64,000 nucleotides of DNA from an uncultured Bacilli bacterium (GTDB lineage: Bacteria > Bacillota_I > Bacilli_A > RF39 > UBA660): assembly GCA_934154785.1 (NCBI GenBank), contig CAKPGL010000002.1, positions 75,805 to 139,804 on the forward strand, written 5' to 3'. Within the stretch, counting starts at the first letter, position 1, and each line of letters starts with the position of its first letter. Under the pieces are notes generated by a model. It searched no databases. It saw only the letters and a list, made by a program, of their open reading frames with translations, and was not told the origin of the DNA. The translations under genes and the position numbers were made by a program. Shown here in pieces: positions 7,605 to 27,487 of this stretch.

Positions 7605-7659
7605 AAAATGAATAAAAAGTCTCCTTTTGGTTCAAGATGAACTAGAAAGGAGATTTTTT

Positions 7660-8436
7660 ATGGCACGTCATAAAGTAGAAATCTGTGGCGTGAATACTGC
7701 GAATATAAAAGTATTAAGTAGTGATGAAATGTTAGAATTGTTTAAAAGATATCAAAATGGAGATAAAACTGCTAAAAACGAACTAATAGAAGGTAATTTA
7801 AAACTAGTTTTATCAATATTAAGAAATTATAGTAATCGAACAGATAATATGGATGATCTATTTCAGATAGGTTGTGTTGGTTTAATTAAAGCAATTGATA
7901 ATTTTGATTTATCACATGAAGTAAAATTTTCTACCTATGCTGTTCCTATGATATTGGGGGAAGTTAAGAGATATTTAAGAGATAATAGTAGTATTAGGGT
8001 AGCGCGTAGTATTAAAGATATAGCGTATAAGTCATTACAGGCTAAAGAACAATTGACTAATGAATTAGGTAAAGAACCCACTATAGAAATGATTGCTAAA
8101 AAATTAGGCTTAACAGAATACGAAGTAACAAATGCTTTAGATTCTATGAAAGATACTATTAGTATGTTTGAACCTATATATAATGATGGTGGCGATACGA
8201 TTTATTTAGCCGATCAATTAGAAGATAAAAATAATAGTATGTATTCAATAGATGATAAAATGGCTTTAAGAGAAGCATTAAAAAGTTTGAATACCAAAGA
8301 ACGTGAAATTATTATAAAAAGATATATAATTGGTAAAACACAAATGGAATTAGCACGTGAATTTGGCATATCTCAGGCACAGATATCTAGAATTGAGAAA
8401 AATAGTTTAGATAAAGTAAAAAAACTCATTTTATAA
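7660..8436 (+). CDS. sigG: Sporulation sigma factor SigG (forespore late sigma). The start was moved to MARHK.
   Basis: Colinear with B. subtilis SigG: KVEICGV(D/N)T, DDLFQ(V/I)GC(I/V)GL(M/I)K(S/A)IDNFDLSH(N/E)VKFSTYAVPMI(I/L)GE(I/V)(R/K)RYLRDN, FEPIYNDGGD, GKTQME(V/L)A(E/R)E(I/F)GISQAQ(V/I)SR(L/I)EK. Confidence 0.85.
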   Translation: MARHKVEICGVNTANIKVLSSDEMLELFKRYQNGDKTAKNELIEGNLKLVLSILRNYSNRTDNMDDLFQIGCVGLIKAIDNFDLSHEVKFSTYAVPMILGEVKRYLRDNSSIRVARSIKDIAYKSLQAKEQLTNELGKEPTIEMIAKKLGLTEYEVTNALDSMKDTISMFEPIYNDGGDTIYLADQLEDKNNSMYSIDDKMALREALKSLNTKEREIIIKRYIIGKTQMELAREFGISQAQISRIEKNSLDKVKKLIL

Positions 8437-8515: not shown

Positions 8516-10669
8516 ATGCAGAAGACTAGAAATAAGACTTTATTGTTGCTTATCTTTTTAGTTGGTATGGTATTGATTCCAAATAGAGCTTTGGCAGAAA
8601 CATTACCAGACAAAATTGGAAACATTTATGAATTAAGGGATAATGAAAGCTTAAAAGGATATACACCATTACGAATAGTAGCTGGTGGTGTTGCTAATTT
8701 AGGACATTATTTGGGAACTGAAACTCAATATTTACCTTATAAAATATCTGCTAGTTCAATAACCGGTACTGGGAGAGATGCAACTGTTACAGGAATTAAC
8801 TATGCTGTTTACTGTACGTTCTTTGGTAAAAATTCTCCAGCACAGAATTCTTATGTATCTTATTGTGGCGATGTTATTAGTGGCTGTTCTGCAACCGCTA
8901 ATGAACAAAAAAATCAAATCCCAGCTTATTGTACAAAAAAAAGTGGTTGGGATGAAGGTACTAAAGCAGGAGTAGCATATATAATTAAACAAGCTGGTGG
9001 TCGTACGTTTGGAGGTGCTAGTCTAGGTAATTATTATAATGCCGAAAGTACAATTAACCAATTTTTGTATGCTGTGAGTGTTAATAAAGATATTTGTAAT
9101 ATCCAAAAGTGTAATGCTGATTCTACTGGTGGTACTAATAGTGACAATAAAATTGTTGATTATAATACCACTGATGTAAATACTGCTAAAGCACTTCGAG
9201 ATACTGTTAATGCATTTACAAATAAAGGTGCATTAACAATAAACGCACCAACAAGTAAAGAATTAACATATGATGATGAAGCAAATGTCTGGAAATCTTC
9301 AAGATTTTCAATTAGTAATTTAGATAAGTATCCTAGTAATAATCAAGAAATAACTGTTGTTTTAAAAGATGCAAATGGTAAAACTTATCCTGGATATGCC
9401 TATATAACTAATATAGGTAGTGAGGTTCAAGTTGGTGTATGTAATAAAAACAATGGTGATTATTGTAAAGATATAACAAACTTTAAAAAGCTGACTTCTG
9501 GAACTTACACTGTAGAGATCACTGTTAAAGGTACTTATTCTTATGATATTGCTGAAAATTATGATTGTGGTACTTTATTTCAAAGTATTACACCTGCAAT
9601 TACAGATACGGTAAATGTTAATGAAAAACAATCTATAACATTTAATTTAAAGATTGCTGATGAACTTGGTTCAATTAAAATTAAAAAAGTAGATGCTGAT
9701 ACTAATGAAGAAGTTACTGGAGCTACAATTACAGTTAGGGGTAAAGATAACGATTTTAATCAACCATTTACATTAACTAATAAAAGTACTATTACAATAA
9801 ACAATTTAAAGTATGGTACTTATGAAATAATTGAAACTAAAGCACCAAATGGTTATGAAAAAGATACAAGAACTTATGAAGTTGTTATATCAAAAGATCA
9901 TCTCTTAGAAGAGGTGGTAATTTCTAATAAAAGAGTTGAAGATAAGGTTGGAATATTTTCTATATTGAAAATTGATGAATCCGGTAATAAATTAGGTGGT
10001 TCAACTTTTGAATATTATTATGATGGCGCTGATAGTGTAACATTTGAAAATGTCACGAAGGATGGAGTAAGAATCACAGATGTTACTTTAAATAAAAGAA
10101 TTTGTTTAGAAGAAACTAAAGCACCAAATGGTTATAAATTAAATTCTAAAAAATTTTGTTTTAAAATAATTGACACTGGTGAAATTAAATTAGATGAAGA
10201 TTATGATTTTATTAAAATAACTAAAAATAAAACAATGTATGTACTAAATGTAATTAATTATCCAGTTGATAAATCTATTGTTAAAATAAAAAAAGTAGAT
10301 TCTAAGGATAATACAAAAGTTTTAGCTGGTGCTAAACTTCATATAATAGATGAGTCAGGTAAAGAAGTAGTTGAACCTTGGATTACAACAACTGAAGAAT
10401 TTGTTATTACAGATTTAAAGGCTGGTAAATATTATATTGAAGAATTAGACGCACCAGAAGGTTATACATTAAATAAAACAAAACAAGAATTTACAATAGA
10501 ATCTAATGAAACTCGCATAACTATAGAGTTTATTAATGAAAAACCTGTTAATGTTCCTAATACTTTGTCTAATATATCTAAATTAGTTATTTTATTAGCA
10601 GTAAGTGGAATATTAGTAGGAGCAATTCTAGTATACAAAAATAAATTTAGTGAGGATGGTATAAAATGA
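8516..10669 (+). CDS. Sortase-dependent pilin/adhesin with three CnaB-type domains and a non-canonical sorting signal VPNTLSN.
   Basis: Signal peptide; three pilin E-box-like motifs (YEIIETKAPNGY, ICLEETKAPNGY, YYIEELDAPEGY). The C-terminus is ...NVPNTLSN, then a hydrophobic TM, then a KNKFSEDGIK charged tail. Confidence 0.75.
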   Translation: MQKTRNKTLLLLIFLVGMVLIPNRALAETLPDKIGNIYELRDNESLKGYTPLRIVAGGVANLGHYLGTETQYLPYKISASSITGTGRDATVTGINYAVYCTFFGKNSPAQNSYVSYCGDVISGCSATANEQKNQIPAYCTKKSGWDEGTKAGVAYIIKQAGGRTFGGASLGNYYNAESTINQFLYAVSVNKDICNIQKCNADSTGGTNSDNKIVDYNTTDVNTAKALRDTVNAFTNKGALTINAPTSKELTYDDEANVWKSSRFSISNLDKYPSNNQEITVVLKDANGKTYPGYAYITNIGSEVQVGVCNKNNGDYCKDITNFKKLTSGTYTVEITVKGTYSYDIAENYDCGTLFQSITPAITDTVNVNEKQSITFNLKIADELGSIKIKKVDADTNEEVTGATITVRGKDNDFNQPFTLTNKSTITINNLKYGTYEIIETKAPNGYEKDTRTYEVVISKDHLLEEVVISNKRVEDKVGIFSILKIDESGNKLGGSTFEYYYDGADSVTFENVTKDGVRITDVTLNKRICLEETKAPNGYKLNSKKFCFKIIDTGEIKLDEDYDFIKITKNKTMYVLNVINYPVDKSIVKIKKVDSKDNTKVLAGAKLHIIDESGKEVVEPWITTTEEFVITDLKAGKYYIEELDAPEGYTLNKTKQEFTIESNETRITIEFINEKPVNVPNTLSNISKLVILLAVSGILVGAILVYKNKFSEDGIK

Positions 10670-12096
10670 AATTAAAGAAAATATTTATATTGTTAATACT
10701 ATTGATTCCAGCAATATTTGCTGGTGGTATAGTAAAAGCTGAGGCAATAACATTTGGTGTTTATGCTAAAAAAGTTGGTACTTCAAATAGTGAAAAAATT
10801 GCTGGAGTTGGATATGAAATATATCAAGACAGCTGTTCTAGTGGTACTAAATTATATAGTGGTACTACAATACAAGGTGATTTTACACGCCATAGTATAG
10901 AAAGTGGTACTACTATTTGTATTAAACCAACAGAAGTACCGTCGACAGATTATAAATTACCTGGCGAAGCAATTAAAACTGTTACTGGTAGTAATAGCAC
11001 TCATGGTATTATTCTAGAAGAAAACACTAATAAAACTAAAATTAGCTTTGCTTATGCAATTACAGATAAAACAGATGGTCATATGATTGATAGTGGAAAA
11101 ATCAGAATTAAACAAGGTGGCGTAAAAGATAACAAATGTACTGGTACAGATATTAAAATCTCAGAAGATGGTTACGGTTACACTTCGAGTACTCCTGTAC
11201 AAATTGGCCCATATGAGTATACAACTGCTCCTAGTAAGGTTTGCATTGAATTAGTTGAAGAGATAGCGGGTTATCAATATCCAGCTGCTCAAGAATTTAC
11301 AGTTGATAGTGATTTAGTTAATACTTACTTGGTTCTTGATAAGAAAAGTACAGATGAGCCTAGCCAAAAAACCAGTTATACAATTGGATTAAAAGCGAAA
11401 GATACAAGTAAGTATTTAAAAGGGAAAATTACTATTACAGATGGTACCGTAGAAAATGGAAGTTGTAGTGGAAATGATCTTGTTTCTAAATTTACAATTT
11501 TCTCCGCTTCAACTAAAACTACTGCAATGCCAAAAAGTACAACAGGTCATATTTGCATAGAAGTTAATAGTTTAGATAACACAAGTTATAAGATACCAGA
11601 ACCAAAAGAATTTACTTATGAAGATGATGGTACTTATGAAATTGAGGTAGAAAAAAAAGATGATGGTAGTACTGTCACTCATCCAACAATAAAGGTTGGA
11701 TTTAAATATAAGGACAATTATGTAAAAGGTATTCAATTTGCAATTTATAAAAAAATGGGTTCTGGTGATAAGTGTAGTACTATTCTGAGAGATAGGTTAA
11801 CAAGTATTAGTAAATTACAATCTTTAGAACTTAGTTCACTTGAAGAAATGCCGAATTCAGTTTGCATTGAGGTTGTTCAGAGTAACCTTGGCAATTATAG
11901 TGTTAAAGAGCATGCAGTGTATACCGTAAAGAATGGTGTTGTGGAAATAGAACTTGGTGATAAAGTAATATCTCCCGATACTATGTCAAATGTATCTATA
12001 ATAGTTATTTCGGCCGGATTAATTGTTCTAATTTTGGGTGGTTACCTGTTATATACAAATAAAATAAATAAGGAGGAAAATTCAACTGAGAATTAA
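10666..12096 (+). CDS. Pilus subunit-like surface protein with four Cys-pair repeat domains and the sorting signal SPDTMSN.
   Basis: Signal peptide; four ~100-aa repeats, each with an N-terminal C(S/T)G and a ...CIE(V/L) motif. The C-terminus is SPDTMSN, then TM, then KINKEEN. Confidence 0.6.
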   Translation: MKLKKIFILLILLIPAIFAGGIVKAEAITFGVYAKKVGTSNSEKIAGVGYEIYQDSCSSGTKLYSGTTIQGDFTRHSIESGTTICIKPTEVPSTDYKLPGEAIKTVTGSNSTHGIILEENTNKTKISFAYAITDKTDGHMIDSGKIRIKQGGVKDNKCTGTDIKISEDGYGYTSSTPVQIGPYEYTTAPSKVCIELVEEIAGYQYPAAQEFTVDSDLVNTYLVLDKKSTDEPSQKTSYTIGLKAKDTSKYLKGKITITDGTVENGSCSGNDLVSKFTIFSASTKTTAMPKSTTGHICIEVNSLDNTSYKIPEPKEFTYEDDGTYEIEVEKKDDGSTVTHPTIKVGFKYKDNYVKGIQFAIYKKMGSGDKCSTILRDRLTSISKLQSLELSSLEEMPNSVCIEVVQSNLGNYSVKEHAVYTVKNGVVEIELGDKVISPDTMSNVSIIVISAGLIVLILGGYLLYTNKINKEENSTEN

Positions 12097-12110
12097 GAAT
12101 AGGTGAGAAG

Positions 12111-13733
12111 ATGAAAAAAAATAGATTATTTAATATATTAAAATTTTCTACATTAACATTGTTTACATTAGCTGCTGTGTTTCCTACAGTGATAAAGGCA
12201 GAAGATACAGATCCTGATGCTATTAAAATAGTAGAATATAGGGCTTGTACTGATTCGGGTGCTGGCTGGAAAGACCCAGAAAAATCAGCCGGATTAACTA
12301 TTGGTGCTAGTTCTAATTGCTTTTTGGCTCGAGGTTCTTCTTATAAATTAACAGCGTTATATAAAGACGGAACTTTGAATGATACTACGCCAACTGTTGC
12401 ACTTAGGTTAAATGTTAACTTACTTTCTCCGGCACAAGATAGATTAGATATTGTCAATAAAAAATTAGTTACTGATGATACTACTTGTAAAAAAATTGCC
12501 AATTATTATGGAAATGATGAGGGAATATATGCTGGACTAGGTCAGCTTTTAAAAGGTGTTGATGAAAGGCGTAAAGAGAAAAGTGATAATCACGTATATG
12601 TTACAACAGATGAACAGTATTTTGCTTCTTTGGCGATGAGTCAATTTATTTCTGAAAAATTAAACAAGAGTAGTTATGCATTAAAAGGCGAAAGTGTTTC
12701 AAATGACGCAATTGCAAGTCGTTATAATGAGTTAGAGGAAGGATATATTAAAGCTACTACTGCAGTACCAGCACAAATAAATAATAAAACTATTAAAACA
12801 TTTAAAATGCAATATATGATTGATGATAATAAAAAGGATTATTTATACAAATCTAGTTTTATTACTTTTAAAGATGCCACGCTATTAGATAAATATACTT
12901 CAAATAAAGGACAAGTTGAGTTATTTAACTTTACTTTAAAGAATAAAGATACCGGTGATTTATATGATGATTATGTTTATGCAGCAATTCAGAATAATAA
13001 ATCAACTAGAGCTCATGATTTAGTATATCAATTTGGTATTTGTGATAGTCTAGACTTTCAAGTAAAAGATTATGCAAATTGTAAGGCATTAAAGGGTAAA
13101 AAGTTACCTGCAGGTAATTACGAATTAGTTGTATCAGTTAATGATGCTATAACATATTCAAAAGTTAAAACTATTTATTCTTGTACATCTTCTAGTTCTA
13201 CTACAGGATATACACCTATTGTATTAAGTAATGGTAATTATTCAACTGCTAAAAATTCAATTAAATATGATTTAACAAGTGAATTTACAGTAGAATCAAA
13301 TCCAACACCTGTGGTTCCAGATGATAAACCAATAGAAAAAATTGGTACTATTAAGGTTAGTATTGTTGACAAAAATAAGAAATTATTAACTGGTGTTAAA
13401 TTTCAAATTTGTGAAGATAGAGATTGTAATTCAATAAAAAATACTGCTACTTCAACAAATGAATCTTATATTGCACCTAATATACCATTTGGTAAGTATT
13501 ATATTGTGGTTACTGAAGTACCTAAAGGATATGTTGTTCCTACTACAGTTGAAGTAGCTGAATTAAGTACTTCTAACACAGTTGCAGAAAAAACTATAGT
13601 AATAGAAGCTACTACTAATGTACCTGATACTTTATCTAATATATCTAAATTATTCTTGATTTGCGGTATAGTTGGTATAATAGCGGGAACTTATTTAGTG
13701 TATAGTAATGCTAAGAAGCAAGAAGAAGTATAA
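12111..13733 (+). CDS. Pilin/adhesin with a C-terminal CnaB domain and the sorting signal VPDTLSN.
   Basis: Signal peptide; CnaB-like block IGTIKVSIVDKNKKLLTGVKF...FGKYYIVVTEVPKGY. The C-terminus is VPDTLSN, then TM, then NAKKQEEV. Confidence 0.7.
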   Translation: MKKNRLFNILKFSTLTLFTLAAVFPTVIKAEDTDPDAIKIVEYRACTDSGAGWKDPEKSAGLTIGASSNCFLARGSSYKLTALYKDGTLNDTTPTVALRLNVNLLSPAQDRLDIVNKKLVTDDTTCKKIANYYGNDEGIYAGLGQLLKGVDERRKEKSDNHVYVTTDEQYFASLAMSQFISEKLNKSSYALKGESVSNDAIASRYNELEEGYIKATTAVPAQINNKTIKTFKMQYMIDDNKKDYLYKSSFITFKDATLLDKYTSNKGQVELFNFTLKNKDTGDLYDDYVYAAIQNNKSTRAHDLVYQFGICDSLDFQVKDYANCKALKGKKLPAGNYELVVSVNDAITYSKVKTIYSCTSSSSTTGYTPIVLSNGNYSTAKNSIKYDLTSEFTVESNPTPVVPDDKPIEKIGTIKVSIVDKNKKLLTGVKFQICEDRDCNSIKNTATSTNESYIAPNIPFGKYYIVVTEVPKGYVVPTTVEVAELSTSNTVAEKTIVIEATTNVPDTLSNISKLFLICGIVGIIAGTYLVYSNAKKQEEV

Positions 13734-14397
13734 TTTATCATTTGTTTTTGGTATTTTATTTATAATTTGTGGATTAGTTATTATACTTTACAATTATTTT
13801 GAAACCAAAAAAATTGAGAGTTTTGATAGTATGAGTATTGCTTTATTGGAATCTGAAACTCCTAGTAATATTGATGATGATTCTAATTTACCAAATGATA
13901 TAGAAGAACCTACAACTGATGATGAACCAAATCAACCTGATAATCCAGTTGTAGAGCGACCTAAGCCACAACCTAAACCAGTTGATTATACAAAGTATTA
14001 TGTAGGTACTCTTGAAATACCTAAGATAAATTTGAAAAAGGGATTTCTAAATATTGATTCACCATATAATAATGTTGATAGGAATGTTACCGTAATCAAG
14101 TCATCTGATTATCCAGATGTTACAAATGGCAATTTTATATTAGCGGCTCATACTGGTAGTAGTAGTATAAGTTTCTTTACTAAACTACACGATTTATCAA
14201 TTGGTGATTTAGCATATATTAATTACAAAGAAAAAAAGTATACTTATCAATTAGTAAATATATATACTCAGCCTAAAGTTGGTTGGATTAATATTTATCG
14301 TGATACAAGTAAAACTACTTTAACGTTGGTTACTTGTACTAAAAATACACAAGAAACGCAAACAATATTTATATTAGAATTAATAAATGTAGAATAA
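13708..14397 (+). CDS. Sortase (transpeptidase), presumably the pilin-specific sortase for this locus.
   Basis: N-terminal TM, catalytic His in LAAHTG, catalytic Cys in TLVTCT, and downstream Arg (IYRD). Overlaps the upstream pilin gene by 26 nt. Confidence 0.75.
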   Translation: MLRSKKKYNLSFVFGILFIICGLVIILYNYFETKKIESFDSMSIALLESETPSNIDDDSNLPNDIEEPTTDDEPNQPDNPVVERPKPQPKPVDYTKYYVGTLEIPKINLKKGFLNIDSPYNNVDRNVTVIKSSDYPDVTNGNFILAAHTGSSSISFFTKLHDLSIGDLAYINYKEKKYTYQLVNIYTQPKVGWINIYRDTSKTTLTLVTCTKNTQETQTIFILELINVE

Positions 14398-14411: not shown

Positions 14412-15200
14412 ATGATTAATTTTTCTTTCTCTGAAAAATTGGTTCAATTAAAAGATATTATTGTATCTTCTCCCTTTTTTTTTGTTTCTGTCATAATTGG
14501 TATTATCTTGTTAATAATTATGATTGTTGGGGTAAAGAAAAATCGTAGAATCAATAATATTATATTTATAGTATCTTGGATTTTCGTTGCAGTTTTTTGT
14601 ATTGCCCGTTATTTTAGTTTTTTTGTAAGTATCTTTGATAGATTATTTGGTAGAATAGTTGATGAGATATATTTTCCATCTATTTCTATTTATACAGTAA
14701 TGTTAATAACTACTAATATAATATTTGTATCTTCAATGTTTAAAAAGAAAGTTAATTCTTTGGTTAAAATTATTAATGTTGGATTTGCAATGCTATTAGA
14801 TTTCTTGTTTATTCTTATTTTAGATACTATTATGAAAAATAATATCGATATATCTGCCAAATTTGGCATATATACTAATTCATCTTTATTAATATTACTA
14901 GAACTTAGTATGACTATTTTCTTAATATGGTTACTTATAGTAGGAGTTTTGTATTTAATTAATAAATATGGTGTTAAAAAAGTATTTGTTAATGAGTATA
15001 AAGAAAAAGATTATGAAATTATAGATACTAAGAATGATGACATTAAAGATGATGGTTATATGGAAATAATTGATACACTAGAAGAAAAGACTAATGTAAA
15101 TAAAAATTTGCCAAATTCTAGCAATGATATATCAGAAATTATAGATTTAGAAGACGATAATACTAGCAAAAAAGATAATATTGAGATTATGAATATTTAA
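14412..15200 (+). CDS. Polytopic membrane protein with an acidic C-terminal tail; function unknown.
   Basis: Five to six hydrophobic helices, then a D/E/N-rich tail. Good SD. Confidence 0.4.
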   Translation: MINFSFSEKLVQLKDIIVSSPFFFVSVIIGIILLIIMIVGVKKNRRINNIIFIVSWIFVAVFCIARYFSFFVSIFDRLFGRIVDEIYFPSISIYTVMLITTNIIFVSSMFKKKVNSLVKIINVGFAMLLDFLFILILDTIMKNNIDISAKFGIYTNSSLLILLELSMTIFLIWLLIVGVLYLINKYGVKKVFVNEYKEKDYEIIDTKNDDIKDDGYMEIIDTLEEKTNVNKNLPNSSNDISEIIDLEDDNTSKKDNIEIMNI

Positions 15201-15508: not shown

Positions 15509-16546
15509 ATGAAGAAAAGAATTACTATAAACATGTTGTCATCTGCTGATAAAGTAGATGGTCAAGGTGTTGGTAGCGCTTATTTAGAACAAGTAGCTCT
15601 TGTTAAAGATGGTGCTAAAGACTATTTTAGTGTTAGAGTAAATAGTCGTGATAAAGCTGATATAATCCATTGTCACACAATTGATCCAATTAATTATTTA
15701 AAAATGAAAATGAATAAAGGTGTTAATGTATCTTATGTACATTTTTTACCTCACACTTTAGATGGAAGTATAAAGCTTCCAAAGATATCTTTTAAAATAT
15801 TTAAAAACTATGTAATAGAATTTTATAAAACAGCTGACCATGTAGTTGTAGTTAATCCTATATTTAAAAAGGAATTAGCGCAATATGGTATTGAGGATGA
15901 AAAAATACATTATATTCCTAATTATGTATCAAGAGAAAAGTTTCATAAATTAACAGATAAACAGGTTTCTGCTTTAAAAAGGAAGTATAGTATTGATCCT
16001 AATAAGTTTGTTGTTTTGGGTGTTGGTCAAGTTCAAACAAGAAAAGGTGTTCTTGATTTTATTAAAACGGCAAAAAAATTACCAGATGTTCAGTTTGTTT
16101 GGTGTGGGGGCTTTTCATTTGGTTGTATAACAGATGGTTACGAAGAACTAAAAAAAGTTTATGATAATCCACCAGAAAATGTTAAATTCTTAGGTATCAT
16201 TCCGCGTGATGAAATGAATAATATGTATAATATAGCAGACGTGTTATTTATGCCATCATATAATGAATTATTTCCTATGGCTATTTTAGAGGCTATAAAT
16301 TCTAGTAAACCACTTCTATTAAGAGACTTGGATTTATATGAAGATATATTATTTAATAAATATATTAAAGGTAAAAGTGTAAGCGATTTTGCAGACGCTA
16401 TTAAGAAGTTGAGTACAGATAAGAAATTTTATAAAGAACAAAGTAAAATGTCTGATGAAATAAGTAATTATTATTCTAAGGAACACGTATTACAAATGTG
16501 GATTGATTTTTATACAAAAATATATGAAGATAGAGTAGAAAAATAA
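15509..16546 (+). CDS. GT4-family glycosyltransferase.
   Basis: C-terminal GT-B motif ...MPSYNELFPMAILEAINSSKPLL... Confidence 0.6.
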   Translation: MKKRITINMLSSADKVDGQGVGSAYLEQVALVKDGAKDYFSVRVNSRDKADIIHCHTIDPINYLKMKMNKGVNVSYVHFLPHTLDGSIKLPKISFKIFKNYVIEFYKTADHVVVVNPIFKKELAQYGIEDEKIHYIPNYVSREKFHKLTDKQVSALKRKYSIDPNKFVVLGVGQVQTRKGVLDFIKTAKKLPDVQFVWCGGFSFGCITDGYEELKKVYDNPPENVKFLGIIPRDEMNNMYNIADVLFMPSYNELFPMAILEAINSSKPLLLRDLDLYEDILFNKYIKGKSVSDFADAIKKLSTDKKFYKEQSKMSDEISNYYSKEHVLQMWIDFYTKIYEDRVEK

Positions 16547-16591
16547 AATTTCTACTCTTTTATGATATAATTATTTATAGTTGGTGAAATT

Positions 16592-17572
16592 ATGAAGAAA
16601 TTTAAGATATTATTTATAGTAGTTTTAATACTCATTACAGGTTGTTCTAATAATAAGGAAAAGGAATACAAACTAAATTTGTATTATATGGATACTTATA
16701 TTTATGTTGATTTCTTTTGTCAGGATTCTACTAAAGCTTCTAAAATTAAAGATGATATTGATAACATCTACAAAGAATATCATGAGTTATCTGATAGATA
16801 TCAAGCGTATGATAATATAATTAATATTTATAGTATTTATAATAATACTAGTAAAGAAAAAACACTTACTATTAATTCTAAATTATATGATTTATTAGAT
16901 TACACTTTGAGTTTTCAGACCAAAACAGATGATAAATTTAATATTGAAATAGGTTCTACTATTGATGTGTGGAAAAAGTATCGCGATTTAGGAGAAGGTA
17001 TTCCTACTAAAAAAGAATTAAATAATACAAAAAAAATAAATCATGTTACTTTACTAGGTGATAATCAAATATTAAATAATCATCCTAATATAGATTTAGG
17101 CGCTATTAGCAAGGGTTATACCACGGAATTAGTAGGTAAATACTTAGAAGAAAATGGTATTACTAAATATTTAATTAATGCTGGAGGGAATGTTAAAGTA
17201 GGTATTCCAAGTAATAAAGAGGCATATTCTATTGGTATTCAAAGCCCTAATAAGGATGGCTCTTTACTTACGGTTGTAAAGGGTAAAAATATTAGTGTCA
17301 TAACTAGTGGTAGCTATGAAAGAAATTATACTTATAATGGTATAACTTATTCACATATTATAGATCCTGTTACACTATATCCCGCTAATAATATGAAAAG
17401 CGTTACTGTAGTAACTAAAGATAGTGCTTTAGGGGATATATTATCAACTACCTTGTTTTTAATGACTGTAGATGAAGGAAAAGAATTTATTAAAGATTAT
17501 GATGTAGAAGCTATCTGGGTTACAAATGATGATCGTATTATTCGTAGTGAAGGATTTAGTGCTTATGAATAA
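16592..17572 (+). CDS. apbE: FAD:protein FMN transferase (ApbE family) lipoprotein.
   Basis: Lipobox LITGCS; ApbE motifs SHIIDP and GDILSTTLFLM. Confidence 0.8.
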   Translation: MKKFKILFIVVLILITGCSNNKEKEYKLNLYYMDTYIYVDFFCQDSTKASKIKDDIDNIYKEYHELSDRYQAYDNIINIYSIYNNTSKEKTLTINSKLYDLLDYTLSFQTKTDDKFNIEIGSTIDVWKKYRDLGEGIPTKKELNNTKKINHVTLLGDNQILNNHPNIDLGAISKGYTTELVGKYLEENGITKYLINAGGNVKVGIPSNKEAYSIGIQSPNKDGSLLTVVKGKNISVITSGSYERNYTYNGITYSHIIDPVTLYPANNMKSVTVVTKDSALGDILSTTLFLMTVDEGKEFIKDYDVEAIWVTNDDRIIRSEGFSAYE

Positions 17573-17930
17573 AAGCGATAAAAGACTACTTTTGATATTA
17601 ATTGTTTTGATAGTTATTACCTGTTTAATTATTTATTTTACTAAATCTAATAATCCCAAAAACGCCTTAGTATATTATAAAGATAATTTAGTATTAACTA
17701 TTGATCTAAGTACTAGTGGTATAAAAGAATATACTGTTTCTGGAGAATTAGGAGATGTTATAATAGAAAAAAATAATGAACAAATTCGTGTAATTGGTGA
17801 AAACAGTCCTAATCATATTTGTAGTAAACAAGGTTATATCAAAGAAAGTTATGAAATGTTAATATGTTTACCTAATAAAGTCGTTATCAAAATAGAAGAT
17901 AAAGATAACGTTGATACAATAGTAAAGTAG
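17565..17930 (+). CDS. NusG-domain-II (DUF1312)-like small membrane-anchored protein.
   Basis: N-terminal TM followed by a beta-rich domain. Its position between ApbE and the Gx transporter is the conserved flavinylation-cluster arrangement. The start was moved to the ATG overlapping the apbE stop. Confidence 0.5.
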   Translation: MNKSDKRLLLILIVLIVITCLIIYFTKSNNPKNALVYYKDNLVLTIDLSTSGIKEYTVSGELGDVIIEKNNEQIRVIGENSPNHICSKQGYIKESYEMLICLPNKVVIKIEDKDNVDTIVK

Positions 17931-17937
17931 GTGTTAT

Positions 17938-18447
17938 ATGGAAATAAAAAAATTTACTAGATTATCTATGCTTTTAGCTTTATCAGTAGTATTAAATATT
18001 GTTGAAAGTTTTATTCCTTTTTTTAGTGGTACTATACCAGGTTTAAAAATAGGTCTTGCTAATACAGTCATACTATTTGTTTTATATACTTATTCTTTTA
18101 AGGATGCTTTTAGTCTTTCCTTACTTAGGGTAATACTAGTTGGTATACTTAGAACTGGTTTATTTAGTATTACATTCTTTTTTAGTTTAAGTGGTGCTAT
18201 TCTTAGTATTATTACTATGTATTTATTTAAAAAGTTTACAAAACTATCTATTATAGGTATTAGTATAATTGGTTCTATTATGCATTCTATTGGTCAAATA
18301 TTAGTAGCAGTATTACTAGTACAAAACATTAATATAGTTTACTATTTACCTTGGATATTACTATTTGCTATACCGTCTGGTATATTAGTAGGATTTATTA
18401 GCAAAGAATTACTTAAATATTTTGATGTAAAGTCCCTTGATAAATAA
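17938..18447 (+). CDS. Gx-transporter-family / heptaprenyl diphosphate synthase component I-like membrane protein.
   Basis: Small 5-TM protein with a typical PF07456-like pattern, next to ApbE and an FMN-binding protein. Confidence 0.5.
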   Translation: MEIKKFTRLSMLLALSVVLNIVESFIPFFSGTIPGLKIGLANTVILFVLYTYSFKDAFSLSLLRVILVGILRTGLFSITFFFSLSGAILSIITMYLFKKFTKLSIIGISIIGSIMHSIGQILVAVLLVQNINIVYYLPWILLFAIPSGILVGFISKELLKYFDVKSLDK

Positions 18448-23086: not shown

Positions 23087-23191
23087 AGAACTATTAGGAA
23101 ATTAACGAATATTTTCTTAATAGTTTTTTTAATAATGATTTGCTTTTTTTAAAATAATATTATAAAATATCCCTTGTTTTGGGGGATGATT

Positions 23192-26100
23192 ATGAAATCT
23201 ATCAGTGAGTTTGATTTAAAGGTTTTAGGTAACACTTTTATTCCAGATATTTTTAAAATTAAGATTATTAATAAACTTAGTATTGAAGACATTATATTTC
23301 ATCAAAAAAAATTTTGTCCTAATCTTGGATTGTTAGATGGGAATTATCTATTAAAATTAGGATTAAAATATCGTAAAAGAGAAATTCTTGAATATTTTAA
23401 GTCCTTTGATGTAGATGATACGGTAAATTTTTCTGTTTTAAAAAGTATACTTATAATAGATGAACATTTAAATAATTATATAATAAAGGTACTTGACATT
23501 TCTGTTATTGATAAACTTATTTCCGGTAATATAAATAGTGATGAAACTTTTAAAAGAATATGTAGGTTACGTAAGAATGATGTTTATGCATTAATTAATA
23601 CCGCTATTAAAGATAATAGATATCAAGATTATGTTAGTTATTGTACACCAGATAGATTAAAGGAGTATATTATAAAAAAAGTTGATATTAACTATCTAAT
23701 ATTGGATTTGACATCCACTAATTCTACTTTAACCAAAACTATTTTAAAGTATAGAAAAAAAGATATTGTTGAATATGTTAATTTAAACTCCAATAACATT
23801 CCTGAGTTAGAAAATTTGTTAAAAATGGATTTGCCTAAAGAAGTTTATAAAATGCTATTAGAGAAATTTCCTATTGATAATAGAATGATTTCTTATATAT
23901 TTTTACATTGTTCTACTGATTTAAAAGATTTATTATTTTTACTTTATCCAGATAAAGTATATGCTTGGGTGGATGAATTTCTAATTGGTGATAAACACTT
24001 TGATATAATTCAACTTAGATATAATAAATTAACATCTTATATTGTAAATAAGCTAAACCTTGAACAATTAGATGATGTAATAAAAGGTAATTTAACGATT
24101 TATTATAGTGACTTTATTAATGAATTATTTAAAGTTAGAAAAGAAGATATCATTAGTATAATAACAGAAAATGTTTCTTTAGATAATTCAAAAATAATAG
24201 ATTATTTATCTTTAAAACTACCTGAAAATATATTAAAGTCTATTATGTACTGCATTGATGTTAATGAAAACATATTAAATATAATTTTAAAAAATGGTAA
24301 TTCTAGTGTTATAGAAAATGTATTTAAAATATATAAAAATGAATTATTACTTATAATTAATAAAAATTCTAAAACTGATAGAATAGCATTCTTAGATAAG
24401 TATTTAAGACAATATGCTTATCCAATAACTTTACAAATAGAATTATTGAAAGACTTAACCGATGAAGAGATAATTTATATTATGTCACAAGGCGTTTTTG
24501 GATATGCGTTAAAGGATAAAATATATGAATTATATAAAGATAGAATTAATAAGATATACAGTAATTTATTATTAAGTGATATAGAAAAAGCAACTACAAT
24601 TTTTAAAAATTCCGCTATAACTGATTTTAGATCGGATATAATTAATAATTATGATTTTAAATACTTACGTTATTTTTTAGATGAAATGAATGAAACGGAA
24701 AAAGAAAAACTATATAAAAAATTCCCTAGGGAACTTAAAGAAATGCTAAGAGCTGAATATTCTAATGATTTATTAGAATTTATAAAAAGAAGGGTTTTAG
24801 ACTGCAATAGTGTAGTTTTAACTTTAAGCCTGAAGTTACTTACTTATGATGATATTATTTTTGCTTTAAAAAATAATATTGATTTTAAATATTACTATAA
24901 TGAAAAATTAAATAAATTAATGGAATCAGCTATAAAAAGTAAAGCTAATGATATAAAGAATTCTCCTTATGATGAATGTTTAATCTTTTTGAAGTCTCTA
25001 AGAGAAAAATTTGATGATTTATTTATTGTCTTTTTAAATAGCATAGAACTTGATGATGATTTCTTACATAAATTATTTATTGAAAGAGGTCTATCTGATA
25101 AACAAAAAGATATTTTATTTAAGATGAAAAGCAATGATATTTTAAGAATTGTTAAAAATAAATTATTAAATGATGAAGTAGATCCTATTGAATATATTCA
25201 AAAGGGTACCCCAGATGATGTGCTAGAACTTGCACTATCTTATATTGAAAAAGATAGAGTAATAAGTTTATTAAATGATCCCAATTTTATTAACAGAAAA
25301 AGTATTGGAAAAAGCTTTGCCTTAAAATTAGCCATAATAGTAAATGTTAATAAAGAGAATGTTCAAGAAGTAGAAAATCTTGTCAAATATTATTCTAAAG
25401 ATATATATGAATTTATTAATAATTATGAAAAAATATATTCTTTTTTAAAACTTAGTAGTATAGATGTTTCAAAGTTTTGGCAATATTCCTTAAATACAAG
25501 TTATAACTTTATAAGCGATATAGTTAAAATATACGAAGATGATTTAGATATGTTTTTACGTGTTAAGGATATATTATTTACATATGTTTATGATGATAAC
25601 AATAAATATTCTTATCAAAGTTTTGTAAATATTATAAAGAATTATAGTAGATATAAAAAACTATGTATATCACTTACTGAAGTAGAAAATTTAGGCGCAA
25701 TTAACTTTAATAATATTAAATTATTATTTAATCAAGATAAACTTATACCAAATATAAATATGTATAATGACTGTGGTAACATTATTAATGTGATAAAGGA
25801 TGAATATATGACAATGTTAAAAAAATGTTCATCAATTGATGAATATAAAGATACTTTATTACAACTATTATTTAATCACAATATTAAATCAGTTGAAGAA
25901 ATGCTTAATAATTATGGTAAAGTTAGTGATTTATTACAACTTAAATATTATAATTTACATAATAAAGAAGTATTAGATAAGATAGACTGTGTTATACCTT
26001 ATACTGAATTAATGGAAGAAATATTATATTGTGATGATATTAATGCTTTAAAAAGAACAATTGATGATACTATTAATAATATAAATTCTATTTTAGTAGA

Positions 26101-27487
26101 TTTTAATTATACTAATTACGATGATTTGATGCGCGAATTATACGCTATAGAAATGGATATGAACTTATCTAAGGTTGGTTATAATGTTGATGTAGATAGT
26201 GTAAAATTAGAAGAAAAATCTAAATTATATGGAGTAGATATATATGATTTTAGAGATAAGCAATATGCTTTATTAGCACATGTATTAAGTGATTCAGAAA
26301 ATATAGATGATTTAATACAGGGTAATTCTAGTGGAACATTTAATTTCATATCACTTTCCGCAATAAGTTATAGAATGCAATCATATTATTATGGTGCTAA
26401 AAATATGATATTTGGTTATGATGAAATGCCTAATTCTAATTTTGTTTGTAGTTCCGATAGCAACATGGGAACAAATTATTCAATAACAAAAAATTCAATT
26501 GAGATGACCCCTATTAATAGAAAACAAAGAGGCTTATTAGAAGTTAGTGATACTGATAGTAATTCTGAAATATTATCTTTAAGAGAAGGTATGAAACCTA
26601 AGTATATTATTTGTCCTGGTAGACTACCTTCTTCAGAGGAACTTAGATGTGCTTTAAAATATAATTTAAAAATTGTTTTAACTCAAGAAATTAATGAAAC
26701 TATTCTTTCTCCTAAACCAATTAATAAACTAGTAGAACCTAAACCTAAAGTATCAAAGGAATATTTAATAGAGTTTAGAAATAAAGTAATTAAAACTGGT
26801 AATAAAAATAAGGTAGCGGTTATAACAGATGCTCATGGTATATTAGAACCTACTTTAGCGGTACTGGAAGATATACGTAAAAAAGGAATAACTAAAATAT
26901 ATTCCTTAGGAGATAATATAGGTACTGGTTCTAATCCTAGTGAAGTGTTAGATATATTAAACCACTATGGAGTAAAAAGTATTAAAGGCAATCATGAATT
27001 GTATCTAATAGATGGGGTAGATGAGTATAAAAAGCATTTAATTGAAACTGGTGCGTATGAAGAGGAAACAATTAACACAAGTTGGACGCGTGACAATTTA
27101 ACAGCAGAACAAGTAGTAGATATATCTAAATATGATAATTATGTAGAATTAGATGTTGCGGGCAACAAGGTATTATTATGCCATTACTTATATGACTATA
27201 ATGAAAACAAACCATTATATGATATAACTAAATATGATTTAGTTATTCAAGGTCATAAACATTTTCAAGCACAATCTGGAAAAATTGTAACATTAAAAGC
27301 AATAGGTATTGGTAATAAAAGTAATGATGATATAGGTAACGCTACTTATATGATTATTGATTTAAATGATAAAGAACATCCATATGAAATAATAAATGTT
27401 CCTTATGCCTATAAAAACTCTATTAATGATGAAAATGTTTCTTCTAATAATTGTAAACAAAAAATAATGAATTGGATTGGTAAATAA
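23192..27487 (+). CDS. Giant (1432 aa) protein: ~1150-aa N/K/I-rich alpha-helical N-terminal region plus a C-terminal calcineurin-like metallophosphoesterase domain.
   Basis: The C-terminal ~260 aa carry an intact MPP motif set: ITDAHG (DxH), LGDNIGTG (GDxxxxG), GNHE, and GHKH. No Walker A anywhere. The start was moved to the ATG 8 nt after the SD GGGGGA. Confidence 0.6.
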   Translation: MKSISEFDLKVLGNTFIPDIFKIKIINKLSIEDIIFHQKKFCPNLGLLDGNYLLKLGLKYRKREILEYFKSFDVDDTVNFSVLKSILIIDEHLNNYIIKVLDISVIDKLISGNINSDETFKRICRLRKNDVYALINTAIKDNRYQDYVSYCTPDRLKEYIIKKVDINYLILDLTSTNSTLTKTILKYRKKDIVEYVNLNSNNIPELENLLKMDLPKEVYKMLLEKFPIDNRMISYIFLHCSTDLKDLLFLLYPDKVYAWVDEFLIGDKHFDIIQLRYNKLTSYIVNKLNLEQLDDVIKGNLTIYYSDFINELFKVRKEDIISIITENVSLDNSKIIDYLSLKLPENILKSIMYCIDVNENILNIILKNGNSSVIENVFKIYKNELLLIINKNSKTDRIAFLDKYLRQYAYPITLQIELLKDLTDEEIIYIMSQGVFGYALKDKIYELYKDRINKIYSNLLLSDIEKATTIFKNSAITDFRSDIINNYDFKYLRYFLDEMNETEKEKLYKKFPRELKEMLRAEYSNDLLEFIKRRVLDCNSVVLTLSLKLLTYDDIIFALKNNIDFKYYYNEKLNKLMESAIKSKANDIKNSPYDECLIFLKSLREKFDDLFIVFLNSIELDDDFLHKLFIERGLSDKQKDILFKMKSNDILRIVKNKLLNDEVDPIEYIQKGTPDDVLELALSYIEKDRVISLLNDPNFINRKSIGKSFALKLAIIVNVNKENVQEVENLVKYYSKDIYEFINNYEKIYSFLKLSSIDVSKFWQYSLNTSYNFISDIVKIYEDDLDMFLRVKDILFTYVYDDNNKYSYQSFVNIIKNYSRYKKLCISLTEVENLGAINFNNIKLLFNQDKLIPNINMYNDCGNIINVIKDEYMTMLKKCSSIDEYKDTLLQLLFNHNIKSVEEMLNNYGKVSDLLQLKYYNLHNKEVLDKIDCVIPYTELMEEILYCDDINALKRTIDDTINNINSILVDFNYTNYDDLMRELYAIEMDMNLSKVGYNVDVDSVKLEEKSKLYGVDIYDFRDKQYALLAHVLSDSENIDDLIQGNSSGTFNFISLSAISYRMQSYYYGAKNMIFGYDEMPNSNFVCSSDSNMGTNYSITKNSIEMTPINRKQRGLLEVSDTDSNSEILSLREGMKPKYIICPGRLPSSEELRCALKYNLKIVLTQEINETILSPKPINKLVEPKPKVSKEYLIEFRNKVIKTGNKNKVAVITDAHGILEPTLAVLEDIRKKGITKIYSLGDNIGTGSNPSEVLDILNHYGVKSIKGNHELYLIDGVDEYKKHLIETGAYEEETINTSWTRDNLTAEQVVDISKYDNYVELDVAGNKVLLCHYLYDYNENKPLYDITKYDLVIQGHKHFQAQSGKIVTLKAIGIGNKSNDDIGNATYMIIDLNDKEHPYEIINVPYAYKNSINDENVSSNNCKQKIMNWIGK

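Follow-up and report, generated by a model that had tools for sequence, protein, structure and literature searches.

The catalytic Arg is regarded as essential in the sortases that have been studied, and the His-Cys-Arg triad is treated as universal. In other sortase classes, residues other than Gly are known to follow the Thr of the sorting signal, with Asn used by class B and Ala by class D; no precedent is known for Asp, Leu, Phe, or Met in this place or for variation from clade to clade within a single sortase family. Here we describe an operon in a 64,000-nucleotide stretch of contig CAKPGL010000002.1 from an uncultured Bacilli bacterium (the window), in which five tightly packed genes on the + strand encode three secreted proteins (open reading frames ORF1, ORF2, and ORF3), a sortase, and a polytopic membrane protein referred to below as the partner. 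From the gene order, motifs, conservation, and family relationships documented across related loci, we propose, with a probability of roughly 60%, that the operon is a self-contained surface-display module that groups one or more adhesin genes with a sortase dedicated to them and a membrane partner, the adhesins being cleaved at a VPxT signal and anchored to the cell wall.

The sortase family and its active site

The sortase gene (positions 13708 to 14397, + strand) overlaps the end of ORF3 by 26 nucleotides. Its 229-amino-acid product comprises an N-terminal membrane anchor (residues ~10 to 31), an acidic/Pro-rich linker, and a catalytic domain (residues ~96 to 229) containing the motifs AAHTG and TLVTC. 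The protein passed two sortase superfamily models, PF04203 (53.3 bits; cutoff, 26.6) and TIGR01076 (53.1 bits; cutoff, 39.35). No NCBIfam sortase class model reached its cutoff: class C (NF033745) scored 63.1 bits versus a cutoff of 160, SrtD scored 45.6 versus 140, class E scored 38.9 versus 160, class D scored 34.4 versus 165, and class F scored 19 versus 166, while the class A and class B models gave no match at an E value of ≤0.01. Two features of class C enzymes, the DP[FWY] lid motif and the C-terminal membrane helix, are absent. The sequence ahead of strand 1 is VDYTKYY in the window sortase; some relatives have DPY there, only 4 to 6 residues ahead of the strand. The C terminus lies 19 residues past the Cys.

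Database searches with the window sortase returned 603 matches, and 472 clusters (at 50% identity) had E values of ≤1e-30. Relatives were present in at least 312 species-representative genomes, and all 80 loci kept from a scan of these genomes came from metagenome-derived assemblies, mostly of human, ruminant, rabbit, mouse, or chicken gut origin. Judged by record titles, which were our source for the relatives' taxonomy, most of the 80 loci are labeled uncultured Bacilli, Tenericutes, Mollicutes, Mycoplasmatota, or Erysipelotrichaceae, and a minority are labeled Clostridia, Clostridiales, or Muribaculaceae; one record is Clostridium sp. CAG:710. The host lineages would accordingly appear to be of the RF39/RFN20/ML615J-28 type. 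Identical copies of window proteins are present in NCBI and Logan assemblies. Public gene calls mostly begin the sortase at Met42, giving a 188-amino-acid protein that lacks the membrane anchor encoded in the region from 13708 to 13833; the 229-residue form is conserved across the family, with invariant G15, G22, and Y30. In the searchable literature, neither this sortase family nor VPxT signals, sortase clades lacking the Arg, or the partner protein were found to be described.

We compared the active sites of 151 family representatives. His148 of the HxG motif (14149 to 14151) and Cys210 of the TLxTC motif (14335 to 14337) are invariant (151/151). The canonical catalytic Arg is expected at the start of strand beta-8, ~8 to 13 residues past the Cys, and there is no Arg between Cys210 and the C terminus of the window sortase; only 9 of 182 family members have any Arg at Cys+5 to Cys+13. 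The family instead follows the pattern TC-x7-Q-[TS]-[IV]-[YF]-I, in which the Gln (Gln218 in the window, 14359 to 14361) is found in 149 of the 151 representatives. In HMMER alignments, the catalytic Arg residues of Listeria SrtA (PDB 5hu4; TCDKPTETTkRFV) and Streptococcus agalactiae SrtA (PDB 3rcc; TCTDPEATERIIV) fall on Gln218. An AF2 model of the sortase, computed from 24 sequences with a predicted local distance difference test (pLDDT) score of 58.6, is usable for residues 160 to 229 and places strands at residues 204 to 210 and 217 to 228, so that Gln218 opens the last strand, where sortases carry Arg. All Foldseek matches of this model were sortases, of classes A, C, and E, with no discrimination among them. 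A different basic residue, Arg198 (14299 to 14301), lies 12 residues before the Cys in the loop ahead of the Cys strand; this position is Arg in 129 and Lys in 15 of the 151 representatives, and class A sortases have Asp or Asn there.

The near-complete retention of His, Cys, and Gln argues for selection on the active site rather than decay. Gln218, possibly together with Arg198, may supply the hydrogen bonding that normally comes from Arg. A Staphylococcus aureus SrtA variant with citrulline in place of Arg197 reportedly kept activity, which would mean that the Arg serves as a hydrogen bond donor, a role open to the amide of Gln. With Gln at the Arg position across a large conserved family, the role of that residue becomes directly testable.

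Sorting signals across related cassettes

The three genes upstream of the sortase are ORF1 (8516 to 10669, + strand; 717 amino acids), ORF2 (10666 to 12096, + strand; 476 amino acids), which overlaps ORF1 by 4 nucleotides, and ORF3 (12111 to 13733, + strand; 540 amino acids). Each product begins with a signal-peptide-like segment and ends in a tripartite tail of motif, hydrophobic helix, and basic end, the C-terminal sequences being ...VNVPNTLSNISKLVILLAVSGILVGAILVYKNKFSEDGIK for ORF1, ...VISPDTMSNVSIIVISAGLIVLILGGYLLYTNKINKEENSTEN for ORF2, and ...TNVPDTLSNISKLFLICGIVGIIAGTYLVYSNAKKQEEV for ORF3. The motifs, all on the + strand, are VPNTLSN in ORF1 (10553 to 10573), where a membrane helix and the tail KNKFSEDGIK follow, SPDTMSN in ORF2 (11971 to 11991), and VPDTLSN in ORF3 (13620 to 13640). 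Peptides of the VP[DN]T type are TTNVPDTLSNISK and VNVPNTLSNISK, and the signal region of ORF2 reads VISPDTMSNVS. The initial annotation had ascribed to these secreted proteins the architecture of sortase substrates with a signal other than LPXTG, and the tails bear this out. In a six-frame scan of the window, the pattern P.T[LM]SN occurred exactly three times, each time in one of these tails, and the scan showed neither an LPxTG-type tail nor a second sortase. The LPXTG anchor models TIGR01167 and PF00746 matched none of the three proteins, and LPXTG-type models, which are used for surface protein prediction in Gram-positive bacteria, thus miss all of them. Two related tails passed the TIGR01167 cutoff of 15.9 (VPNTASS in locus L053, 20.7; VPNTGSN in locus L047, 16.4), which ties VPxT-type signals to the classical LPXTG kind.

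Comparison of sorting signals among homologues, which the initial annotation had called for, covered 59 clean sortase-substrate pairs. V-P-x-T is fixed in these pairs, 0 to 10 residues ahead of the helix, and LPXTG occurs in none, so a canonical signal in homologous proteins of relatives, which would have refuted the initial reading, was not seen. After Thr, the pairs have Asp (n = 19), Ala (n = 16), Gly (n = 10), Ser (n = 5), Leu (n = 4), Asn (n = 4), or Phe (n = 1), and this residue tracks the sortase clade: clade 2 is paired with VPKTGL[TS], clade 3 with VPKTDS, clades 5 and 7 with VP[DN]T[ANSG], and clade 6, to which the window sortase belongs, with VPITD[LM]N, VPITxSS, and VPDTLSN (overall, VPxTxx[ND]). 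The closest relatives, with sortases 58 to 75% identical to that of the window, have VPDTLSN, VPNTLSN, VPDTLST, VPNTLTD, and VPDTFAN, which gives a local motif of VP[DN]T[LFM][SA]N. The proposal that Pro-x-Thr is conserved and the Gly position is not therefore holds well beyond the window. The trailing SN, which had been included in the motif, is indeed shared by ORF1, ORF2, and ORF3, and it forms part of the clade-level VPxTxx[ND] pattern.

With few exceptions, the substrate gene of a related locus ends right at the start of the sortase gene or overlaps it. This recurrent pairing upholds the earlier assignment of the adjacent downstream sortase as the cognate enzyme; the unusual specificity suggested for that enzyme would extend to the whole family, which also lacks the catalytic Arg. 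One metagenome-assembled genome (MAG), SUG259, has three cassettes with different signals. At locus L033 (1 to 5381), two full cassettes of substrate, sortase, and partner genes lie in tandem, with the signals VPITDAN and VPSTSSS, and a third cassette is found in the same MAG (L050, VPITSSS). Duplication apparently involves the entire module.

Two further observations concern specificity. Immediately before the invariant Gln, at Cys+7, Lys is present in 16 of the 19 sortases paired with Asp after Thr, and other groups have Thr; this Lys could be a charge-complementary specificity determinant, a correlation that is confounded by phylogeny. Separately, small proteins encoded in the opposite orientation have C termini made up of QNPNTGD, a membrane helix, and KKA (L015, 4710 to 5372, − strand; L042, 111 to 764, − strand; L067, 117 to 779, − strand). 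These tails are a second, NPXTG-like signal in related MAGs, where another sortase specificity may therefore exist.

The same data bear on the possibility that the sortase-like protein is not a transpeptidase and acts as a chaperone or a plain protease, with its substrates remaining helix-anchored or being released. Gln in place of the catalytic Arg would fit such a role, as would the degeneracy of ORF2-type signals, which in locus L001 extends to loss of the Pro (VDDTMSN, compared with SPDTMSN in the window). However, an active site kept in 151/151 (His148 and Cys210) and 149/151 (Gln218) representatives appears to be under selection, and VPxT, 0 to 10 residues ahead of the helix, is conserved in all 59 pairs. 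We consider a protein without transpeptidase activity quite improbable.

Cargo proteins, membrane partner, and proposed mechanism

ORF1 consists of a signal peptide, a thioester-domain-like region (residues ~28 to 380), three CnaB/SpaA domains (residues ~381 to 676), and the sorting signal. The CnaB/E-box hallmark, initially ascribed to all three secreted proteins, is clear in ORF1 (three matches to the Pfam SpaA model, PF17802), weaker in ORF3 (one match, YYIVVTEVPKGY), and undetectable in ORF2. Lys/Glu/Asn triads are readable in all three CnaB domains of ORF1. In its N-terminal region, Cys100 (8813 to 8815, in the context VYCTF...P) and Gln356 (9581 to 9583) align with the invariant C68 and Q272 of a thioester domain alignment built from the cassettes (A3), and both residues are kept in the four closest homologues; hhalign matched this region to A3 with 95% probability (E = 2.6e-8). 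The Pfam TED model (PF08341) did not match ORF1 or ORF3, and it scored above its cutoff in related substrates from L003, L053, and L047. A [TM]QxA.W motif is found in 41 cassette substrates, which are most of the full-length ones; in ORF1, the TQxxW helper motif is altered or lost. The best PDB sequence match for both ORF1 and ORF3 was BaTIE (PDB 6fwv), and ORF1 is predicted to be a BaTIE-like thioester adhesin.

ORF3 has a signal peptide, an N-terminal domain, a single CnaB/SpaA domain (residues 412 to 493), and the sorting signal. Its N-terminal domain is related to that of the ORF1-like protein of L001 (BLAST E value, 1e-10) but lacks the thioester Gln, and hhalign against the thioester domain alignment gave an insignificant probability of 5%. 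These relationships point to ORF3 as a diverged ORF1-type paralogue without the thioester Gln. In strain alleles of ORF3 (P0313-P0317), the last CnaB domain and the TTNVPDTLSNISK tail are 85 to 88% identical and the N-terminal domain is a different, ORF1-like one; this swap indicates shuffling of adhesin head domains between strains. For ORF2, the spacing of Cys pairs (57/85, 158/193, 267/297, and 370/400), and this spacing only, suggests four repeats of ~105 amino acids; the repeats were not detected by self-BLAST, and the protein had no Pfam, NCBIfam, or PDB match. Its counterpart in L001 just reaches the SpaA cutoff (24.2 bits).

The locus was initially annotated as a pilus operon. Under that model, a heteromeric sortase-assembled pilus would have ORF1 as its thioester tip, ORF3 or ORF2 as its shaft, and ORF2, with the deviant signal, as its base, and the subunits would be polymerized through Thr-Lys isopeptide bonds, as by class C enzymes or by Spy0129, a class B sortase. 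In both PDB and NCBIfam searches, the sortase matched class C best (55 bits for Ebp sortase 24rr and 63 bits for the class C model), ORF2-type signals differ from the other two as often seen in basal pilins, and the pili of Streptococcus pyogenes, which are built with a sortase outside class C, combine a thioester tip adhesin, Cpa (VPPTG), and a shaft pilin carrying EVPTG (PMC3019223). However, the class C score is far below its cutoff, and the lid motif and C-terminal helix are missing from the window sortase. A YPKN-type pilin motif was found in none of 56 substrates; the expression [YFWVI]PK[NTDSHGQ], which covers canonical-type lysines only, had the E-box-like EVPKGY as its sole match in ORF3 and did not match most substrates at all. 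In addition, ~55 of 68 cassettes have as their sole substrate one thioester domain adhesin rather than a known shaft pilin, the cargo of these single-substrate cassettes being a thioester domain with CnaB stalk domains in the BaTIE architecture (PMC6194298, PMC8092201), and close relatives encode anywhere from 1 to 3 substrates at this chromosomal site. With no pilin-motif lysine found, most related cassettes holding one thioester domain adhesin, and ORF1 resembling BaTIE, the pilus label is not borne out as given. In view of the three-substrate layout and the class C affinity, we regard pilus assembly as a serious rival, though not a probable one, and wall anchoring of adhesins as at least as likely.

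Several points nonetheless weigh against wall anchoring by an active sortase. A dedicated sortase gene linked to three substrate genes is the classic pilus layout, as in ebpABC-srtC; the catalytic Arg is missing, and activity is assumed from conservation; the structural model of the sortase is poor; and the degenerate ORF2-type signals may go uncleaved.

The operon itself is real, but its initially annotated extent (8516 to 14397) stopped short of a conserved gene that belongs to it. The partner gene (14412 to 15200, + strand) encodes 262 amino acids with ~5 membrane helices and a variable acidic C-terminal tail, and it follows the sortase gene in ~66 of 68 cassettes, including both tandem cassettes of L033. 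Conserved motifs of the partner are Y-F-P-(N/S) (Y-F-P-S in the window, residues 87 to 90, 14670 to 14681), Y94, N122, D138, D146, Y154-x-N156, E164, and F170-x-x-W173. By the positive-inside rule, these motifs are predicted to face outward, where the sortase works. The partner had no Pfam or NCBIfam family match, and seven of its homologues gave nothing meaningful either. Its AF2 model (pLDDT, 73.7) also has ~5 membrane helices, and a fold search of the PDB with this model returned nothing below an E value of 3.

Such strict synteny with substrate and sortase genes, kept even in tandem cassettes, together with motifs predicted to lie outside the membrane, could mean that the partner is the key actor, either as an enzyme that processes C-terminal signals by a logic like that of exosortases or rhombosortases or as a covalent acceptor for the adhesins. 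The partner, however, has no invariant Cys, His, or Ser, no protease-like motif, and no family or fold match, and a bona fide sortase domain with intact His and Cys is present in every cassette. A role as an exosortase-like protease was rejected for want of an invariant Cys, His, or Ser, and we consider a partner-centered mechanism as a whole very improbable. An inactive sortase and a partner-centered mechanism are thus both unlikely explanations of the locus.

We therefore return to the surface-display module, for which the following mechanism can be proposed from sequence patterns. Signal peptides would direct the export of ORF1, ORF2, and ORF3, whose C-terminal helices and basic tails would retain them in the membrane. 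The membrane-anchored sortase, using His148 and Cys210, would then cleave after the Thr of VP[DN]T, forming a thioacyl intermediate on Cys210 from which the protein would be transferred to an amine, most probably that of a peptidoglycan cross-bridge. Such transfer would yield covalently wall-anchored adhesins or stalk proteins. The residue after Thr would be set clade by clade, with no restriction to Gly. The partner probably acts with the sortase on the outside of the membrane, where it might, for instance, present the substrate or position or stabilize the sortase. Genes for an SLT transglycosylase and SigG in the window and for FtsW/RodA in related loci point to a peptidoglycan wall, and most RF39/ML615J-28 species are predicted to have peptidoglycan with meso-diaminopimelic acid (m-DAP) (PMC10868615).

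Genomic setting, implications, and comparison with known systems

A gene for a SigG-type sporulation sigma factor (7627 to 8436) lies directly upstream of the operon, an arrangement shared with L081 and L082. Inspection by eye showed no promoter of the SigG type upstream of ORF1. A promoter scan performed no better than the shuffled expectation, terminator matches fell inside genes, and the window had no Rfam family match. Downstream of the operon (15509 to 18447) are genes for a GT4 glycosyltransferase, an ApbE flavin transferase, a NusG_II-like protein, and a heptaprenyl-diphosphate-synthase-I-like membrane protein. This cluster is syntenic in close relatives, with a gene for an FMN_bind protein following it in L083/L084, and it looks like an extracytoplasmic flavinylation cluster. 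Across the window (1 to 64000), nearly all open reading frames of at least 180 amino acids are on the + strand, GC skew is positive throughout, and G+C content is 20 to 33%. The window also contains a PD-(D/E)XK transposase-like gene (1400 to 2551) and a gene for an unannotated 1,437-amino-acid protein with a C-terminal metallophosphoesterase domain (23174 to 27487).

In a survey based on KEGG Orthology (KO) terms, RFN20 and ML615J-28 were scored as lacking srtA/B, from which reduced surface display was inferred (PMC10868615). KO-based annotation would give this result if the divergent family described here were present and went unrecognized, and VPxT sortases may be the machinery that such surveys missed. 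We tentatively suggest, at slightly worse than even odds, that the family is a previously unrecognized sortase class, defined by a His-Cys-Gln center, an Arg that has moved to the beta6/beta7 loop, an obligatory polytopic partner, and a clade-set VPxT|X specificity (with X being Asp, Leu/Phe/Met, Gly, or Ala/Asn/Ser), and that uncultured gut Bacilli scored as sortase-less would rely on it as their principal means of anchoring proteins. The predicted cargo, thioester-type covalent adhesins of abundant uncultured gut bacteria, bears on attachment to the host or to food particles, and the conserved partner adds a new candidate to the accessory proteins of sortases. If the specificities proposed here are correct, enzymes of this family acting on VPxT with Asp or Leu after it would be orthogonal to SrtA for protein ligation.

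The closest known enzymes by HMM and PDB scores are class C sortases such as Enterococcus faecalis Ebp SrtC (PDB 24rr), with which the window sortase shares the sortase fold, an N-terminal anchor, the HxG and TLxTC motifs, and a gene directly after those of the substrates. It differs from them in its class C score (63 bits, compared with the 160 required), the lack of a lid or C-terminal helix, Gln in place of Arg, VPxT-x substrates, and the polytopic partner gene. Class D sortases and Clostridium perfringens SrtD (PDB 4d70) gave the second-best HMM and PDB matches; they, too, use a residue other than Gly after Thr and occur in m-DAP Firmicutes, and the window operon lies beside sigG. Class D enzymes are associated with sporulation and recognize LPNTA/LPxTATN, with Leu at position 1, Ala after Thr, and a normal Arg, whereas the window sortase scored only 45.6/140 against the SrtD model and 34.4/165 against the class D model. 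As for the partner, actinobacterial SafA is a small membrane protein encoded next to srtA; the window partner, in contrast, has ~5 helices and no detectable similarity to anything known, and the likeness is one of analogy only.

The sorting signal nearest to VPxT is the (E/Q/V)(V/P)PTG class of S. pyogenes. The FCT pilus system of that species (Spy0129) shares with the window Val/Pro-rich signals that do not begin with Leu, a thioester adhesin (Cpa), and a dedicated sortase (PMC3019223). There, however, Gly follows Thr, the sortase is a class B enzyme with His-Cys-Arg, and the accessory protein is of the SipA/LepA type, whereas the window sortase had no class B HMM match. The cargo most resembles TIE adhesins with class II thioester domains (BaTIE [PDB 6FWV], SaTIE, and EfmTIE86), which likewise consist of a signal peptide, a thioester domain, CnaB domains, a sorting signal, and a helix (PMC6194298, PMC8092201). 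BaTIE itself has an LPATG signal and is described as sortase-anchored, and the accessible portion of its description mentions no adjacent sortase gene (PMC6194298). Unlike these adhesins, ORF1 lacks TQxxW and ORF3 lacks the thioester Gln, and here each adhesin is encoded together with its own divergent sortase and carries a VPxT-x signal.

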